From an uncultured Oscillospiraceae bacterium (GTDB lineage: Bacteria > Bacillota > Clostridia > Oscillospirales > Ruminococcaceae): a DNA stretch of 55,182 nucleotides. The notes under the pieces are model-generated. The model was not told the origin of the DNA. It did no database searches and saw only the letters and a program-made list of their open reading frames with translations. This document shows, piece after piece, positions 2,183 to 55,182 of the stretch (the first letter of the stretch is position 1; the number at the start of each line of letters is the position of its first letter). A program made the translations under genes and the position numbers. The stretch spans positions 1 through 55,182 of the forward strand of contig CAYUOH010000013.1 in NCBI GenBank assembly GCA_964446385.1, read 5' to 3'.

Positions 2183-4192
2183 TTATTCCTGCGCCTGGGG
2201 CACCAGTTCACTAACATTTGCTTCCTTGTTTGTGTCCTGCTCAATTGTCTTCATTATGGATTCTTTAATACTTTGAACCCGGGCGTTCTCTTCCTTGTTC
2301 CCACTGTTGAAATTGACGCCGAGCTTTTCGCTGATCAAAAGCCCAAGAAGCATCTCAAAGGCATTCACAGAGCTGCCTTGTTCCTGTCCACCCATGTTGA
2401 CCACGGTCTTTGGGACAATGTCAATTTGTGATTTCTCGATGGCTGCGGTAAATTTGCTCATGACATCCTGCACGACCTGATACTGCGGTCCACCGTATGC
2501 GCGGACCTGCTCTTCGATGGCTATGGCCTTGCCTATGCCTACTCTTGCCTCGCGTTCAGCCTCAGCCTCGGCAATCGCCTTGATCTTTGATGCCTCCTGA
2601 AGAGATCTTTGAAAATCGGCCTTACCCTGGTTGCTCTGAATCTGAATATTGATATCCGATTCTGTAAGCAACCTTTGCTGCAGCGCCTTGGACTCGGCTT
2701 CTCTGAGTTCTTTTTCCTTGCCTGCGGCTTTTTCCTGCTGCGCATAGGTTTCTATTCGCTCAACGGCTATCTGTCTGTCGCGTAGCTGTGCAAGTATAAC
2801 TTCAATCTTGTTGTCATTGGAGGACGCGGAGGGTGTACCGATGAGCACTTCCTCGAGCTCCAGGTTGTAATGCGCAAACTTTGCCTTCATTTCGAGGGAC
2901 GAGGTATTTTGAATATCATTTCTTTCATGAATAAGCTGTATGAGCGTCTTTGTCTGGCCGATGTTTTTGAAATATGCGGAGACCATCGGGTCAAGCGTTT
3001 GATCAACGAGCTTCTTGATATCGCCGAAGCGCTGGATTACCAGAGGCGCTTTCTTGTAGTCAATATGCATGACCACGGAAAGCGGAAGCGACGGTTCGAA
3101 AGCATCCTTTGTGATAAGGCTGACTTCCCTAAGATTTTCGTCAAAATTATGCGAACCTGTCTGGTTGCTGATCCACTTGAGTATGATGTTCGTTGTCGGG
3201 ACCCTTATGATCATTCCGGAATAAGTATTGAAGGCATATTTACCCGGCATGAGCGGTTCACTCCAGACACCGCGGAAGCCCTTTTCGACAAGTTCACCGT
3301 GCTTATATTCGTCTCCTGTGGAGTCAACACCTTTTTCACCAATAAAAGATACAACCACACCGACAAATCCGACGTCGATAAGGGTCTTGTCGATGAATTC
3401 CACTGTCGCAAAAAATCTGTTGATAAAGTATGTACCTTCGACAAGCGTTTGATACTGTCTGCCACGGAATCCGCCCGCTTTGAGAAATTTCTCAGGATCC
3501 TGAAAATTGTTATGGTATGTTTCCGGATTGTCCGGGTTATCACCGACGGCAGGTGCGATAATATCCTGCCTGTTGAGTGAAAGACCGTCGTGGACTGTTA
3601 CGATTCCGACCTTATCATCACTGCCTTTGATAACGATAGGTCTGAAGCCGTCACGCTCCCTGAGTTGTTCCGCCATATTGATTATCGTAGACTCCTCAGA
3701 TTTTGTGCCCATAGGCAGATAGTAAATTCTGTCCTGTGTTATGATGACAAACTGCGCAAGATTAAATGCGTATGTACCTTCACGAACAATGCCGCGCTGG
3801 GGCCCTTTCTGGCCTCCGTTAAGTAAAAAAGCTTTGGCATTTTGAAAATTACTGCCTTCAGGGACGACTTTGCCCAGAGTCTGAATAGGTTCAAGAGGCC
3901 GTCCGTCCCGAGCGAAGACATAAGCGATCTGCCCTTGCGGCACAGTCACAAGCGGACAGAGGTGCACAATATACATTAGCGGAGACAGAAGATGCAGACC
4001 GCCTCTGATAATCTGTGGCTGGAAACCGGCTTCGCCATTAAGTGCGATGATCTGCTCGTTCAACGAGCCCTTTGTAGACCACCATTTTTCTACTATCGCA
4101 ATCTTGTTGTTAGGTACAATTCTTAGACCGATAAGCCAAAAGAATAGAACAATGCCGAAAACAATTGAAATTGTAAGCAACAAACCGTCCAT
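2183..4192 (-). CDS. flotillin-like SPFH/band-7 domain protein (YqiK/FloT-like), 669 aa
   Basis: N-terminal TM helix, SPFH domain, and a long Ala/Glu-rich coiled coil (AEAEAEREARVG...) typical of bacterial flotillins; AGGAGG SD 6 nt upstream of the ATG at 4192. Confidence 0.8.
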   Translation of the reverse strand: MDGLLLTISIVFGIVLFFWLIGLRIVPNNKIAIVEKWWSTKGSLNEQIIALNGEAGFQPQIIRGGLHLLSPLMYIVHLCPLVTVPQGQIAYVFARDGRPLEPIQTLGKVVPEGSNFQNAKAFLLNGGQKGPQRGIVREGTYAFNLAQFVIITQDRIYYLPMGTKSEESTIINMAEQLRERDGFRPIVIKGSDDKVGIVTVHDGLSLNRQDIIAPAVGDNPDNPETYHNNFQDPEKFLKAGGFRGRQYQTLVEGTYFINRFFATVEFIDKTLIDVGFVGVVVSFIGEKGVDSTGDEYKHGELVEKGFRGVWSEPLMPGKYAFNTYSGMIIRVPTTNIILKWISNQTGSHNFDENLREVSLITKDAFEPSLPLSVVMHIDYKKAPLVIQRFGDIKKLVDQTLDPMVSAYFKNIGQTKTLIQLIHERNDIQNTSSLEMKAKFAHYNLELEEVLIGTPSASSNDNKIEVILAQLRDRQIAVERIETYAQQEKAAGKEKELREAESKALQQRLLTESDINIQIQSNQGKADFQRSLQEASKIKAIAEAEAEREARVGIGKAIAIEEQVRAYGGPQYQVVQDVMSKFTAAIEKSQIDIVPKTVVNMGGQEQGSSVNAFEMLLGLLISEKLGVNFNSGNKEENARVQSIKESIMKTIEQDTNKEANVSELVPQAQE

Positions 4193-19595: not shown

Positions 19596-20081
19596 ATGAA
19601 AATATTGGTCCCTGTTGATGGTTCTTCCGCTTCTATTAATGCAGTTAAAAAGTCGATTAAGATAGCAAAGTATTATAATTTTTCAATAAAACTGATATCT
19701 GTTATTCAACCTGCAACCGCAAGAAGATATATGAGGAATGAAAGCCTCTGGCGTCAGACAGATGGATCAGCAATAACGGGTAGAAAAATGAAGTTTGATG
19801 ACGATGAATTCACTGGTAAAATGCAAGCAGAGGCAAACGAAATGTTGGATTCAATAATTTCTAAATTAAACTTTGAAGATGTTAAAGTTGAAAAAGAAAT
19901 ATTAGTGGGAGAGCCTCACGATAAAATTCTTGAAACAGCAGAAAATGAAAATTTTGATTTAATTATAATGAGCAACAGAGGATATTCTAGCATAAAAAAC
20001 TTCTTTTTAGGTTCTGTGGCACAAAGAGTAATTGCCGAGTCAAAGTGTCCTGTATTAATATTTCATTCCGATTTAGAATAA
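19596..20081 (+). CDS. universal stress protein UspA family
   Basis: MKILVPVDGSSAS...DLIIMSNRGYSSIKNFFLGSVAQRVIAESKCPVLIFH, the canonical Usp ATP-binding C-terminus; AT-rich. Confidence 0.85.
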   Translation: MKILVPVDGSSASINAVKKSIKIAKYYNFSIKLISVIQPATARRYMRNESLWRQTDGSAITGRKMKFDDDEFTGKMQAEANEMLDSIISKLNFEDVKVEKEILVGEPHDKILETAENENFDLIIMSNRGYSSIKNFFLGSVAQRVIAESKCPVLIFHSDLE

Positions 20082-37850: not shown

Positions 37851-38795
37851 ATGAAAAAGATCAGTTCGGAAGAATACATAAAGTTATTCTTCAGCCCGTC
37901 TGAAAAAAGTGAAATATCAACTGAAATTCTGCTGTCAGAGAAAGCGGATTTTTCTCTGCCGCTTAGGAATCCTGTTTCTCACAAATACAGTAACGGTCGG
38001 GCACTGATTATTGCGGGAAGTACCGGTTATGCAGGCGCGTCGGTTCTGGCGGCAAACGCGTGTGAGCGAAGCGGAGCAGGACTGACAACGCTGCTGGTTC
38101 CCGAAAGTATTTACAAAATTGCAGCCGTAAAGTGTGACGGATCCGTGGTTATACCTGTAAAGGCGAACAAAAACGGATGTTTTTCGCCTAAAGGTTTTGA
38201 TTTAGTAATGAATGCGCTTGAAAAAGCGGATGCCTGCGTCATTGGCCCGGGAATTCGGACGGGGAGCGACGCCGAAAAGATTGTCGCTGAAGTAGTGAAT
38301 AACAGTCCCTGCCCCGTAATTATTGACGCGGATGCTCTGACGGTATGCGGTCGTGATTCCCACCTGCTTGATGCCTGCAAATCAAAAATCATACTTACTC
38401 CGCATGAGGGCGAGTTTACAAGAATCGGCGGAGATTTATCCCGCGGCAGACTAGCCGGTGCTGAAGAATACGTAAAAAAACACAAAAATGCTGTTCTTGT
38501 CCTGAAGGGCTTCGGATCGATAGTCGCTGACGGAGAGAACCTGTATGTCAATCCGACAGGAAATCCCGGAATGGCAAAGGGCGGCAGCGGGGATGTTCTT
38601 TGTGGTATGATGTGCGCTCTGATTGCGCAGAAATATGATCCGGTGTTTTCTGCAAAATGTGCTGTATATCTTCACGGCCTGGCCGGGGATATGGCTTGTG
38701 CTGAAAAAGGGGAGTATTCGATAATTCCTTCTGACATAATTGACAAAATACCATATGCATTCATAAGCATAACCGAAAAAGAAACAATCAGATGA
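37851..38795 (+). CDS. nnrD: ADP-dependent NAD(P)H-hydrate dehydratase (YjeF C-terminal / NnrD)
   Basis: HKYSNGRALIIAGSTGYAGA, TPHEGEF and GGSGDVLCG motifs; start placed at the ATG with a GGAGA SD (the ORF-track start at 37728 overlaps the VOC gene). Confidence 0.8.
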   Translation: MKKISSEEYIKLFFSPSEKSEISTEILLSEKADFSLPLRNPVSHKYSNGRALIIAGSTGYAGASVLAANACERSGAGLTTLLVPESIYKIAAVKCDGSVVIPVKANKNGCFSPKGFDLVMNALEKADACVIGPGIRTGSDAEKIVAEVVNNSPCPVIIDADALTVCGRDSHLLDACKSKIILTPHEGEFTRIGGDLSRGRLAGAEEYVKKHKNAVLVLKGFGSIVADGENLYVNPTGNPGMAKGGSGDVLCGMMCALIAQKYDPVFSAKCAVYLHGLAGDMACAEKGEYSIIPSDIIDKIPYAFISITEKETIR

Positions 38796-38893
38796 TTGTT
38801 GAAGAGGGAAGACTTCTGGTTCAAAAGATTAAATAGCTTCTGCACGCAGGTAAACTTTCAGGGCGGTCAATAATATGACCGCCCCCAATTTCA

Positions 38894-39478
38894 TTATATT
38901 TTAAGTTTGAACATCCCGTGTCTGTTGCAGAAACAGTACAGATATCGTGTGCTGCTTATCTTGAAACGTGCCTCCGCAGGCCCTTCGGGATACAGTTTTT
39001 TTATTTCGCAGCCGTCGTCCTTTACAGCGGCGAAGAAAGATAAATAATGTTCTTTTGTCATTTCATGTTCTGAGGAAACATAATACTCATCCTCGGCAAT
39101 TCTTACTTTTATACTGTGAAAATCATCGGGATTTTCCGCCTCTTCAGACGGCAAGGTAATACCGCAGCAGCTGATTACTGCCTCACCGGTAGAAACTATA
39201 ACGTTTCCGCATACCGGGCATACGTGGAATTTCATCCTTATCATGTTGAATGATCGGTTGCTGTTCGTAACATTTTTTCCGGCAATCAGCTCGGATACTG
39301 AAAGCCCCAGAGCGGATGCAAGGGATTCCAGCAGAGAAATGTCGGGATATCCGCGACCGTTTTCCCATTTGGATACAGCCTTGTCGCTTACGTTCAGCAG
39401 TCCGGCGAGATTTGCCTGGGTCATGCCCCGGCTCTCGCGCAGTAATTTGATTATTTCTCCGGTAACGTACTGATTCAT
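38894..39478 (-). CDS. XRE-family HTH regulator fused to a complete desulfoferrodoxin (desulforedoxin plus superoxide-reductase domains)
   Basis: N-terminus LRESRGMTQANLAGLLNVSDKAVSKWENG is a Cro/C1 HTH; CPVCGNVIV...CCG is the desulforedoxin Fe(Cys)4 site; H..HEMTKEH...PEGPAEARF...CNRHG matches the SOR centre II ligand pattern (compare Dfx HPMEEKH...CNLHG). Confidence 0.75.
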   Translation of the reverse strand: MNQYVTGEIIKLLRESRGMTQANLAGLLNVSDKAVSKWENGRGYPDISLLESLASALGLSVSELIAGKNVTNSNRSFNMIRMKFHVCPVCGNVIVSTGEAVISCCGITLPSEEAENPDDFHSIKVRIAEDEYYVSSEHEMTKEHYLSFFAAVKDDGCEIKKLYPEGPAEARFKISSTRYLYCFCNRHGMFKLKI

Positions 39479-39708
39479 TTTTTCTCCCTAGAATGCTCCG
39501 TATGGATCCGATATAGCGCTGCAGATCCTCCGGAAATTTTGAAATGTGCCAGCGGTCGGCAGCGGCATGATGGTATATCAGCGGCTGCGTCATAATTATA
39601 TTATCACATTGACAATATATTAATGTATCCGGCAGATTCCAGGTACCTACGTTCAGTAGATATATAAAATCATTTCCCGAAAAAGGAAAGGCCACAGAAA
39701 CATAAAAT

Positions 39709-40569
39709 TTATACGTAAACCAGGAAAAGACCGACAAGAACACCTAAAAGAGTCATGAACGCGGGGGCTTTGGAACGCAGCATAAGGAAAGCTTCGGGCA
39801 TTAGCTCCCCGAAAACCACATACAGCATTGCACCTCCTGCGAAGCTGAGTGAGAAAGACAGCCACAGCGGGCTGAGCATACTCAGTGAATACCCACAGAC
39901 TGCACCGATAATTGTCGGTACGCCGGACAGGGCAGTAATGGCGACAGCCTTCCAGCTTCCCATTCCGCCGGAAATAAGAGGGACCGATACGGCCATGCCT
40001 TCGGGAATGTTGTGAAGGCCAATAATTACTGCTATCAGGAATCCGGTTCCTCCGGTAAGCGTAGCGGCGTCGCCCGCGTATGTGGCACCTATAACCATTC
40101 CTTCCGGCATGTTGTGCAGCGCTATCGCGAAAGCCATAACAACACCTGCAAGGAAAAGCTGGCGGTTGTTGTTTGTTCTGTACATGTGTTCGTAGTAATG
40201 GTCTGAGTGAATCAGCTCGTCCAGGTCGTCTGCGGTATGAGGATGCTCTTCCTGTTCCACATGTGAAAGCTCCGGATTGGTGTTTTTATCTATAAGCCAG
40301 TTAAGCAGATACACAACCCCGAATCCAACAGAAGTACCGGCCGCAACCAGCCAGATTGATATTTCAGATTCGGCTCCTGCGGGATGAAAAGCACTAGGCA
40401 GCATGTCAAAACATACAACGGACATCATTACTCCTGCAGCAAAGCTCAGAAGCAGACTGACCAATTTTGACGAGTCACGGCGTAAAATGGCACCGATAAG
40501 TCCGCCGAGGCCGGTCCCCAAAACTCCGGCAACGCCTGTAATTATAATTATTCCCCAGATCCTATTCAT
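39709..40569 (-). CDS. zupT: ZIP family metal transporter (ZupT-like)
   Basis: HNMPEGM and HNIPEGMA motifs in TM4/5-like helices, a His-rich loop, and about 8 TM. Confidence 0.85.
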   Translation of the reverse strand: MNRIWGIIIITGVAGVLGTGLGGLIGAILRRDSSKLVSLLLSFAAGVMMSVVCFDMLPSAFHPAGAESEISIWLVAAGTSVGFGVVYLLNWLIDKNTNPELSHVEQEEHPHTADDLDELIHSDHYYEHMYRTNNNRQLFLAGVVMAFAIALHNMPEGMVIGATYAGDAATLTGGTGFLIAVIIGLHNIPEGMAVSVPLISGGMGSWKAVAITALSGVPTIIGAVCGYSLSMLSPLWLSFSLSFAGGAMLYVVFGELMPEAFLMLRSKAPAFMTLLGVLVGLFLVYV

Positions 40570-40591
40570 ATATTACTCTCCACGTTTTGCC

Positions 40592-40635
40592 AGTTAGCCT
40601 ATGCTAACTGATTTCGTAGTTAGCATAGGCTAACT
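40592..40635. promoter_or_regulatory. duplicated DtxR/IdeR-type palindromic operator (two 18-bp sites, mutually reverse-complementary)
   Basis: AGTTAGCCTATGCTAACT (40592-40609) and AGTTAGCATAGGCTAACT (40618-40635); each has 7-bp inverted arms around TTAGC..GCTAA, resembling the DtxR box TTAGGTTAGCCTAACCTAA; located 23-66 bp upstream of zupT and about 180 bp upstream of the dtxR-like gene. Confidence 0.5.
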
Positions 40636-40810
40636 TGGCCGGAATGTCAAGGTATTATATACTTTTGTATAGAAATTGTTGTATTTGTGTCGACTACATG
40701 AAGGCTTCGTCCTATAATTAAGGAACAATATAATAAAACAGGGGACGTGTGTCATTGACCGCTGTGTTATGATGTTTTTAAATACCAAAATAATGCGGGA
40801 GATGAAATAA

Positions 40811-41185
40811 TTGCCTATTCAGGAATCCGGCGAAATGTACCTTGAGACTATCTTGGTTTTGTCCGGACAAAAGAAAACAGTCCGCGCTATTGATATTGTG
40901 GAATACATGAATTTCTCCAAACCTTCCGTAAGCCGTGCGCTTTCCCGTCTGCGTGCGGACGGGCTGATTGATACGGACAATGAAGGTTATATAACCTTTA
41001 CCGAAAATGGAAGAAGTCGCGCAGAAAAAATTTACAACCGCCACGTGGTTCTTGCGGACTTTTTTGTCAGACTCGGTGTGAATGCGGATACAGCATCCTC
41101 AGACGCTTGCAGGATAGAACACATAATCAGCGACGAAACATTCAACGCAATGGTAAAATACGCAAATTTACTGAAGAAAAAATAA
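40811..41185 (+). CDS. DtxR/MntR family metal-dependent transcriptional regulator
   Basis: EMYLETILVL...VRAIDIVEYMNFSKPSVSRALSRLRADGLI wHTH typical of DtxR/MntR; TTG start with a GGGAGA SD. Confidence 0.8.
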   Translation: MPIQESGEMYLETILVLSGQKKTVRAIDIVEYMNFSKPSVSRALSRLRADGLIDTDNEGYITFTENGRSRAEKIYNRHVVLADFFVRLGVNADTASSDACRIEHIISDETFNAMVKYANLLKKK

Positions 41186-41532
41186 CAGAATTAAGATAAA
41201 GGCTCACTATTTAGGTAGAGTGCTTTCACTAATTTATATAAACACCTCCTGTATGATTATAGTTTTTATGCGCTTAATACAATATAGCAGAAATTACTCA
41301 TCTGTTCATTGACTTTATTCAAGAGGTTTACAGAAGGCTGGATATTAAAATAGTGTTTAAAATTTGAAAAAACGGGGTGTTTTTCTGACTGAAACAGGCT
41401 TTTTCTCGGGATATGATTAGTTTTGTGATAAATAACAAAAACAGGAACTTTTGATTCCCAATTATCCCTCAATTAGTGAATTGAACTATTTTTTATTTCT
41501 GTTATCATTTAAGTATCAAAGGAGGTCGCCAG

Positions 41533-53828: not shown

Positions 53829-54413
53829 TTAGCCGAAGTAACGCTCCAGCAGACCCTTCAGAGCCTTGCCGTGACGGGCCTCGTCGCGGGCCATCTCATG
53901 AACCGTATCATGTATGGCGTCAAGGCCGTTCTTCTTGGCACAGGATGCCAGCTCGAATTTGCCGGCAGTTGCGCCGAATTCACAGTCAACGCGCCATGCA
54001 AGATTCTTCGCGGTGCTATCGGTCATATTGGGCTCAAGGTCTTTGCCCAGAAGCTCGGCAAACTTGGCAGCATGCTCAGCCTCTTCATAGGCGGCTTTTT
54101 CCCAGTAAAGGCCGATTTCGGGATATCCTTGGCGGTGAGCAATACGTGCCATGCAGAGATACATTCCTACTTCGCTGCACTCACCCTGGAAGTTAGCTTT
54201 CAGTTGTTCAAGGATATACTTCTTATCCTCTTCGCTGACATTAACGTTATCCTTGACGGTTTTGGCAAATACGCCGTATTCATGCTCTGCGGCAAGCTTT
54301 TGTTCACCCTTTACCTCCTCGAACATGGAAGAGGGTGCTCCACACTGGGGGCATTTCTCGGGGGGTTCGGGTCCTTCATAAATGTAACCGCAAACTTTGC
54401 ATACATACTTCAT
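53829..54413 (-). CDS. rbr: reverse rubrerythrin (N-terminal rubredoxin-like domain plus ferritin-like di-iron domain)
   Basis: [14 protein letters not shown]...CPQCGA is a rubredoxin CxxC pair, followed by E..EH di-iron motifs ([19 protein letters not shown]); AGAGG SD before the ATG at 54413 (the ORF-track start at 54506 adds an unlikely 31 aa). Confidence 0.85.
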
Positions 54414-54487
54414 TTCGGCTAACCTCTTTTCAAAAAATATGAATTTAAAAAAGGATATAATATTATATAAGCTAATCTTTTTTTGAA

Positions 54488-55182
54488 TTACGCTTTTCCG
54501 GCGCATCCAAGTACATCAACAAGCTTGTGACGTACAAGTTCCTTGATGTTGCTGCGGGCAGGTTTCAGGTATTCACGGGGATCAAACTTGTCAGGATTCT
54601 CAGCCATGAACTTGCGGATGGTGCCGGTCATTGCAAGACGCAGGTCGCTGTCGATATTGATCTTGCAGACGGAAAGTTCTGCGGCGTGACGAAGCTCATA
54701 CTCAGGGATGCCGATGGCGTCCGGCATTTTTCCGCCGAATTGATTGACCATTTTTACATATTCCTGGGGGACGGAGGAAGAGCCGTGCAGAACAATGGGG
54801 AATCCGGGCAGAAGGCGGGATACTTCTTCAAGAATGTCGAAACGGAGGGAAGGGGGAACAAGTATGCCCTTCTCATTACGTGTGCACTGATCCGGGGTGA
54901 ACTTGTATGCGCCGTGGCTTGTGCCGATGGCGATCGCAAGACTGTCACATCCGGTCTTGGAAACGAATTCCTCAACCTCTTCGGGACGTGTGTAGCTGGA
55001 AGCCTCGGCGGAAACCTTTACGTCGTCCTCAACGCCGGCAAGGGAACCGAGCTCTGCCTCGACAACAGCGCCGTGATCATGAGCGTACTCGACAACACGC
55101 TTGGTTTCGATGATGTTTTTCTCGAAAGGAAGAGAGGAGGCATCGATCATAACGGAGGTGAATCCGCCGTCGATGCAGCTCT
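54488..55182 (-). CDS. fba: class II fructose-/tagatose-bisphosphate aldolase (3' part; N-terminus lies beyond the window end)
   Basis: [22 protein letters not shown] and VLHGSSS motifs of class II aldolases; the frame stays open to the window edge. Confidence 0.85.

Follow-up and report, generated by a model that had tools for sequence, protein, structure and literature searches.

The closest described counterparts of the gene examined here are known from a database: in 2011, SORGOdb set up the class “HTH-Dx-SOR” with 19 proteins, which combine a helix-turn-helix (HTH) domain with a desulforedoxin (Dx) and a superoxide reductase (SOR) domain (Lucchetti-Miganeh et al., 2011, PMC3116461). This class rests on domain composition alone, and neither an experimental study of any HTH-Dx-SOR protein nor a function, an operator, a ligand analysis or biochemistry for the class was found in the searchable literature. 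In a stretch of 55,182 nucleotides from an uncultured Oscillospiraceae bacterium (contig CAYUOH010000013.1; the whole stretch that was analyzed is referred to as the window), a gene on the minus strand at 38894..39478 encodes a protein of 194 amino acids with the same order of HTH, desulforedoxin and SOR domains. The window protein is an unannotated new member of this class, and its architecture, whose novelty had been implied in the first-pass annotation of this DNA, was therefore already known. What is new here is the operator, the promoter geometry, a map of ligand variation in the family and the removal of the argument from gene neighbourhood. With modest confidence, we read the protein as an autoregulating one-component regulator of the HTH-Dx-SOR class, in which the iron centres of the desulfoferrodoxin (Dfx) module serve as input.

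Besides this class, several better characterized systems resemble the protein in one or the other part. With the Dfx proteins or 2Fe-SORs of D. desulfuricans (1DFX) and Desulfoarculus baarsii (2JI1) it shares both modules, the nine iron ligands, the motifs H-x-M-x3-H and C-N-x-H-G and, as predicted, the fold. Unlike these enzymes, it has an additional DNA-binding domain, a D-F-H sequence, an acidic loop and scores below the thresholds of the hidden Markov models (HMMs), and the ligands of its relatives drift. For the HTH domain, the closest solved structures are P22 c2, the 434 repressor and DdrO, which are, as lambda cI, dimeric regulators binding to palindromes at their own promoters. Lambda cI bound at OR2 activates PRM from a centre near −43, where it abuts the −35 box. 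In contrast to the LexA-like or peptidase-type C-terminal domain that such regulators use for dimerization and signal perception, the corresponding part of the window protein has the make-up of an iron protein.

In functional terms, SoxR with its [2Fe-2S] cluster, PerR/Fur with Fe-His/Asp sites and FNR, NsrR and RirA with [4Fe-4S] clusters are analogous, as an iron centre reports oxidants or the iron status to a DNA-binding domain. However, their centres are neither of the desulforedoxin Fe(Cys)4 nor of the SOR Fe(His)4Cys type, and their HTH family is a different one. PutA, BirA and NadR also carry a catalytic-type domain fused to an HTH, but these three are proven enzymes, and in HppE, where an HTH_3-like domain is paired with a mononuclear iron domain, the HTH-like domain is not a regulator. 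Two candidates for a characterized homologue were rejected, namely OseR of C. difficile, which is Spx/YusI-like, and TrtA of T. denticola, an XRE protein of 104 amino acids that lacks a Dfx domain.

Little is understood of the ways in which strict anaerobes in the gut and rumen detect oxygen and superoxide, and the known sensors, PerR, Rex, sigma-B and the Spx-like OseR, are all borrowed from other paradigms (PMC11980386, among other sources). A regulator built on a superoxide reductase scaffold would solve this task in another way, and the HTH-Dx-SOR fusion occurs in hundreds of Clostridia species. The 15-bp operator, the promoter geometry and the natural ligand variants described below make the database category of 2011 directly testable.

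Domain organization and distribution

The gene starts with ATG, has the ribosome-binding site GGGAG 6 nt upstream of it and encodes an N-terminus (MNQYVTG) that agrees with the consensus of the family. In line with the first-pass annotation, this single open reading frame (ORF) comprises an XRE/Cro-type HTH domain and both Dfx modules, and the HTH part is readily detected by HMM. The XRE/Cro-C1 HTH domain extends over residues 7–66 (39281..39460, minus strand), and HTH_3 (PF01381) matches residues 10–64 with E=2.7e-14 and 53.4 bits against a cut-off of 23; HTH_31, HTH_19 and HTH_26 likewise exceed their own Pfam cut-offs. Both phmmer and Foldseek lead to P22 c2, the 434 repressor and DdrO. The AlphaFold2 (AF2) model predicts five helices in this domain, from H7-16 to H61-66, which compare to the P22 c2 and 434 repressor domains with target-normalised TM-scores of 0.79–0.87 (Foldseek). 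The putative recognition helix, SDKAVSKWENG (residues 31–41), is nearly invariant and represents the most conserved segment of the protein in the family comparison.

As HppE, HEPD and MPnS, whose iron enzyme domain follows an HTH_3-like domain, are also among the matches from Foldseek and phmmer, the HTH domain of the window protein might be a structural or oligomerizing element rather than a DNA-binding one, and the protein a SOR variant with an N-terminal appendage. We regard this explanation as highly improbable, because HTH_3 scores well over its threshold, because conservation peaks in the recognition helix, because HppE matches at a root-mean-square deviation of about 13 Å over the whole chain, and because a palindrome at a fixed promoter position accompanies this HTH even where it is linked to a different C-terminal domain (see below).

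A linker of about 15 residues connects the HTH domain with the Dfx module, which consists of a desulforedoxin-like module at residues 82–109 (39152..39235) and a SOR (neelaredoxin-like) module at residues 114–193 (38900..39139), both on the minus strand. With the window protein as query, the curated models remain below threshold for this part: PF01880 reaches 18.7 bits (cut-off 22.2), PF06397 11.1 bits (E=0.32, cut-off 23) and the equivalog TIGR00320 only 38.4 bits in spite of an E-value of 1.2e-9 (cut-off 146.9). Since the Dfx part scores weakly in single-sequence HMM searches, public relatives are labelled merely “helix-turn-helix domain-containing protein”. The Dfx homology of the C-terminal part is secure: phmmer against the PDB aligned residues 81–191 with residues 4–123 of D. 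baarsii Dfx (E=1.2e-7), and a profile of 120 relatives matched across Dfx residues 4–125 with E=2.3e-15. The AF2 model (pLDDT 88.1) matches the 2Fe-SORs 2JI1, 1DFX and 1Y07 in Foldseek with E=2.6e-9 to 5e-7 over about 122 columns and target-normalised TM-scores of 0.71–0.78. As modelled, this part matches a complete Dfx module with the immunoglobulin-like beta-sandwich of SOR together with the Dx fold.

The fusion is not a product of chance, because full-length relatives with 64–76% identity fill the best 120 of at least 8000 protein matches. The first-pass annotation had asked how widespread such fusions are, and they turn out to be common: with one genome scanned per species, relatives were found in at least 543 genomes. 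Among the matches listed, the carriers are mostly Oscillospiraceae, Lachnospiraceae, Ruminococcaceae and Peptostreptococcaceae, together with a few metagenome-assembled genomes of Treponema, Sphaerochaeta and Schwartzia. Cultured strains are also represented, namely Clostridium merdae Marseille-P2953, Romboutsia timonensis Marseille-P326 and Clostridium transplantifaecale Marseille-P8228. Using the Dfx-like half alone as query, we obtained 907 clusters at 50% identity with E≤1e-3 and 406 with E≤1e-10, which include longer fusions and also genuine stand-alone versions of 112–121 amino acids. A canonical Dfx at ≥35% identity was not found in the locus DNA examined, which covers partial genomes.

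One of the compact stand-alone proteins, P0172 (our handles for proteins and loci begin with P and L, respectively), has 116 amino acids, is 43% identical to window residues 79–194 and is encoded at 1501-1851 of L156, inside a contig of 47 kb. For at least this case, it is ruled out that the stand-alone hits are gene-calling artefacts caused by an internal Met. The P0172 gene has no operator upstream, and the next genes downstream are one for an SDR protein and, after it, a separate one with the same HTH type (neighbours considered to 3351). Other relatives have long C-terminal extensions (L062, 6001-7446; P0253, 488 aa; P0147, 356 aa; P0139, 324 aa), which represent either fusion or frameshift read-through; judged by eye, the extension in L062 resembles an S-adenosylmethionine-dependent methyltransferase.

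A palindrome at the promoters of the family

The k-mer counts of 71 family upstream regions were compared with those of 367 upstream regions of neighbouring genes. ACTCTAC is present in 30 of the 71 family regions versus 8 of the 367 others (p~1e-29), and CAACCTAC in 21 versus 5. The enriched k-mers assemble into AACTCTACGGAGCGTAGGTTG, which corresponds to a palindrome TCTACG-N3-CGTAG(G/A) followed by TTG. Of the 71 genomes, 63 carry this motif on the coding strand, and in 58 it ends 33–75 nt before the start codon. In all 63 motif-bearing promoters a TAnnnT hexamer follows 16–18 nt past TTGnnn, while the flanking DNA is not conserved. Because TAnnnT follows at this fixed spacing, we take the terminal TTG as the start of the −35 box, so that the palindrome abuts the −35 box and is centred at about −43. 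Many −35 boxes of the family are poor, which fits a dependence on an activator.

In the window, the candidate operator TCTACT-GAA-CGTAGG (39646..39660, minus strand) lies within the 21-nt family motif (39643-39663), of which it is the core. It scores 17.1 bits with the position weight matrix (PWM) and is both the sole match of ≥11 bits and the sole zero-mismatch TCTACN5GTAGR site in 55 kb, i.e. neither the PWM nor the core palindrome indicates a second site in the window. Directly adjacent is a promoter of the family type, P1 (39617..39645, minus strand), with the −35 box TACCTG (39640-39645), a 17-nt spacer and the −10 box TAATAT (39617-39622), which follows the geometry of the 63 orthologous promoters. 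The −35 box of P1 is very poor, with 1/6 matching positions, and the centre of the operator is located at about −43 from the inferred start.

Besides these self-promoters, additional sites of ≥14 bits in 0.8 Mb of flanking DNA are located upstream of genes with the same HTH, among them genes whose C-termini are unrelated (L078, L080), or, in L065/L066, in front of an operon with such a gene. The lone exception is a weak site in L030 with 15.9 bits, and shuffled DNA gave 2 matches. A comparable pattern emerges from 73 metagenome loci with the exact 19-mer: about 61 of them are situated upstream of an HTH-Dx-SOR gene, and in 3 (L092, L097, L118) the gene that follows combines the same HTH with a membrane-type C-terminus, whereas the others are 3 orphan remnants, 1 site followed by a gene similar to those for chloramphenicol acetyltransferase (CAT-like) and 5 cut by contig ends. 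Moreover, in a few lineages with a deviating recognition helix, the two half-sites deviate along with it in a symmetrical manner: SPKAVSKWE pairs with TCCAC/TCCAC (L068, L072, L073) and VTDKAVSRWE with TCTAT/TCTAT (L001). These comparative data provide good evidence, although not proof, that the HTH would bind to the palindrome and that the gene is autoregulated.

An HTH of the same type (VSKWE[NT]GRGxPD), with operator and promoter in the same layout, is joined to unrelated C-termini in three metagenome loci (L092, L097, L118) and two genome loci (L078, L080); among these C-termini are membrane-spanning segments and a CxxC pair of zinc-ribbon-like appearance. The pair of HTH and operator thus appears to be a portable cassette that is attached to different input domains. 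The three orphan cases, in which operator and promoter have no downstream HTH gene, are L085, L099 and L110; in L099 an oppositely oriented Phd/VapC-like toxin-antitoxin pair fills the space, which suggests gene loss or replacement. In L065/L066 about 2.9 kb separate the operator (3048-3068) from the HTH-Dx-SOR gene, and two ORFs on the same strand (166 aa and about 680 aa) come first; the three genes may form an operon that ends with the regulator.

Iron ligands and their drift

The motifs CPVCG...CCG, HEMTKEH and CNRHG, on which the first-pass annotation had based its assignment of the iron sites, are present, and the alignment with D. baarsii Dfx confirmed that all nine iron ligands are found in the window protein. 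Candidates for the Fe(Cys)4 site are C87, C90, C104 and C105, corresponding to Dfx C10, C13, C29 and C30, and for the Fe(His)4Cys site H121, H138, H144, C184 and H187, corresponding to Dfx H49, H69, H75, C116 and H119. Among close relatives C87, C90 and C104 are invariant and C105 is conserved to ≥90%. In centre I, the spacer has 13 residues (C-x2-C-x13-CC) and not 15 as in the 2Fe-SOR motif C-x2-C-x15-CC, and the four Cys align (PMC11980386). For centre II, the spacings of 16/5/39/2 are 1–3 residues under the ranges of the published pattern H-x(19-27)-H-x5-H-x(40-63)-C-x2-H, with the ligands aligned (PMC11980386). In total, the Dfx-like module lacks about 9 residues in comparison with canonical Dfx, to which it is about 24% identical.

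More pronounced differences concern the surroundings of the open iron site. According to the PDB alignment, D119-F120-H121 replaces the catalytic E47-K48-H49, so that the second-sphere Glu-Lys pair is absent, and a Lys at the position equivalent to K48 is found in just 18 of 348 aligned relatives, most of which have Ala, Glu, Asp or Gly instead. Lys48 speeds up the reaction with superoxide. Glu47 and Lys48 were reportedly the subject of a study by Lombard and co-workers in 2001, which is among the references of SORGOdb. In addition, the 12 residues before the first His have a net charge of −5 in the window protein versus −1 in D. baarsii, with a family mode of −3 to −4. The segment H-x-M-[TS]-K-x-H is almost invariant in the family, and its Lys142 is present in 323 of 345 members.

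Among 74 species-level members, the full CCCC/HHH/CH ligand set is retained in 34, and the window protein belongs to this subset keeping every ligand. In 15 of the 74, the last His is changed to Asp, in 11 of them together with CC to CH, and in 8 of the 74 a Cys takes the place of the last His (C-x2-C instead of C-x2-H) while the first His is absent. Several further members lack the axial Cys and a His, and Cys to Ser is also among the variants. Because the ligand sets drift in this way, the family seems to conserve a metal-binding scaffold rather than SOR catalysis. The coupled change, in which the second Cys pair of centre I goes from CC to CH along with the last His of centre II to Asp (C-N-R-D-G), was seen in the family alignment (L009, L015, L017, L019, L070 and others).

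These data bear directly on the question whether the protein is a genuine, self-regulated superoxide reductase, i.e. a “trigger enzyme” like PutA or BirA, whose HTH tunes nothing but its own synthesis. It could, for example, repress its promoter as long as it is reduced or idle and release it upon oxidation, which would result in an inducible defence of one gene without a wider regulon. The nine ligands and C-N-x-H-G in the window protein, the complete ligand set of the 34 species-level relatives and the modelled 2Fe-SOR fold are all compatible with an enzyme. Likewise, the near confinement of the operator to promoters of genes with the same HTH and the lack of conserved neighbouring or co-transcribed genes are what a self-contained unit predicts. 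However, Lys48 is absent, and a loop with a charge of −5 above the open iron site should keep the likewise negative superoxide away. Furthermore, the ligand set has changed in more than half of the species-level relatives, including loss of the axial Cys, the module stays under every curated Dfx threshold, and a Pfam scan of the neighbours revealed no rubredoxin or NROR electron donor linked to the gene. We therefore take the enzyme seriously but consider it rather unlikely; if it applies, the protein would be a neat but minor fusion of enzyme and repressor. A role as sensor-regulator would be a reasonable interpretation of the sequence, and the absence of the Lys, the acidic loop and the drifting ligands add weight to it.

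A model for autoregulation

For the one-component regulator that we favour, we propose the following sequence of events. The Dfx module would bind iron at the Cys4 and His4Cys sites and would also provide the dimer interface, as it does in 2Fe-SOR homodimers. The dimer would place two HTHs on TCTAC-N5-GTAGG (39646-39660), where they abut the −35 box of their own gene with a centre at about −43, and with an HTH pair at this position the protein would control its own transcription. Superoxide, O2 or peroxide would then oxidize the solvent-exposed Fe(II)His4Cys, or iron would be lost, and the resulting change of the Dfx dimer would alter either the DNA affinity or the contact to RNA polymerase. 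Positive autoregulation of the lambda PRM type would be attractive in light of the −43 position, the poor −35 boxes and the cI/c2-like HTH, and repression through occlusion of the −35 box would be equally possible.

In a more far-reaching version, the Dfx module would be non-enzymatic and act as input of a new class of direct superoxide or oxygen sensors in strict anaerobes, with the SOR-type Fe(His)4Cys switching a cI-like HTH on the conserved operator and the Fe(Cys)4 serving as redox relay. We put this version forward only tentatively, as we consider it doubtful. If true, it would be the first transcription factor that senses by SOR chemistry, widespread in gut and rumen Clostridia, and in the sister subfamilies the ligand changes (His to Asp, CC to CH, His to Cys) would have retuned the sensor to different signals.

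Several points weigh against the regulator model in general. We infer metal binding, dimerization and direct operator binding, and the same applies to the kind of signal, to activation or repression and to targets beyond the gene itself. Since all nine ligands and C-N-x-H-G are kept, the window protein could still reduce superoxide; Lys142 might stand in for Lys48, and the SOR of Ignicoccus hospitalis lacks the canonical Lys and is yet active. Regarding the DNA, the operator of the window is unusually far from the ATG (164 nt), and downstream of it lies a stronger-looking promoter-like site found by consensus scan, P2 (TTAATA-17-TATAAT, 10/12; 39595..39623, minus strand), which makes the local geometry less certain than in most relatives. 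P2 and an AT-rich inverted repeat that overlaps it (39591-39625, inverted-repeat search) are without comparative support and may have arisen by chance in AT-rich DNA. The covariation of helix and half-site involves few lineages and is confounded by phylogeny. Finally, because the consensus was derived from self-promoters, the exact-match scan is biased towards them and can neither exclude nor define a wider regulon.

The leader and a remnant of a CAT-like gene

Most of the leader of about 130 nt consists of a relic of the 3′ end of a CAT-like gene (39495..39593, minus strand), which reads MTQPLIYHHAAADRWHISKFPEDLQRYIGS and shows 45% identity over 33 amino acids to the C-terminus of the CAT-family protein in L155, with an ungapped alignment at the DNA level. 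The CAT-family gene of L155 is intact (PF00302, E=3e-33), and 21 nt lie between its end and the orthologue of the HTH-Dx-SOR gene downstream. The arrangement in L155 together with the relic in the window indicates an ancestral order of operator-promoter, cat-like gene and HTH-Dx-SOR gene, from which the cat-like gene has been deleted here. A riboswitch or another structured RNA in the leader was considered and rejected in favour of the CAT relic, since no Rfam family matches the leader (38500-41300 scanned at E≤1, with one unrelated weak match elsewhere). An ORF of 186 amino acids (39183-39743, minus strand) overlaps the 5′ third of the gene and the leader and runs through the CAT relic; it is most likely spurious, because it is out of frame with both the conserved gene and the relic.

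Genomic surroundings

The genes around the HTH-Dx-SOR gene encode NnrD (Carb_kinase), a VOC protein (Glyoxalase), a ZIP transporter (zupT) and a DtxR-like regulator (40811-41185), with the HTH-Dx-SOR gene directly downstream of the ZIP transporter gene and near the DtxR-like one. These neighbours and a reverse rubrerythrin are present, as reported in the first-pass annotation, but the functional cluster that had been suggested for them was rejected, as they do not recur, no family is enriched and no operator is shared. None of the six flanking genes recurs at 73 other loci, and no Pfam family is enriched among 132 immediate neighbours, where GNAT ranks first with 5 of 132. The sole locus sharing the NnrD-VOC-DUF2161 block, in convergent orientation, is L155, whose orthologue is with 76% identity the closest among the matches listed. 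The reverse rubrerythrin gene (53829-54506, minus strand) is located about 14.4 kb from the HTH-Dx-SOR gene and encodes a rubredoxin-like domain (residues 34–63) that precedes the rubrerythrin domain; the scan of the 55 kb found no HTH-Dx-SOR operator at this gene.

Upstream of zupT, between a promoter-like site and the start codon and beside the divergent DtxR-like gene, there are two tandem perfect palindromes AGTTAGC-N4-GCTAACT (40592-40635) with arms of 18 nt that are 100% complementary. We take them to resemble DtxR boxes, i.e. operators of the DtxR/MntR type, and zupT is therefore probably under its own metal-dependent control. Since the neighbours do not recur and zupT has its own palindromes, the “cluster” is incidental.

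In this context, the protein might also be viewed as a sensor of metal availability (Fe or Zn), in which the occupancy of the sites and not their redox state switches DNA binding, and which would tie it to the ZIP and DtxR-like genes next to it. The swaps of His to Asp, Cys to His and His to Cys are typical of a tuning of metal selectivity, and heavy-metal P-type ATPases adjoin the gene in 2–3 loci, which fits such a function as well as the transporter directly upstream and the regulator nearby do in the window. On the other hand, a ZIP/DtxR neighbourhood is found in 0 of 73 other genomes, the upstream gene in L155 is the CAT-like acetyltransferase and not zupT, and the DtxR-type palindromes of zupT come without an HTH-Dx-SOR operator. 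A metal sensor is thus an unlikely explanation.

On its downstream side, the HTH-Dx-SOR gene is convergent with the NnrD gene, and between the two a GC-rich hairpin, GGGCGGTCA-tattat-TGACCGCCC (38861..38884), represents a candidate bidirectional terminator, which the terminator scan missed because its T-tract on the minus strand is weak. At a larger distance, the window also contains a gene for a universal stress protein at 19596-20081.

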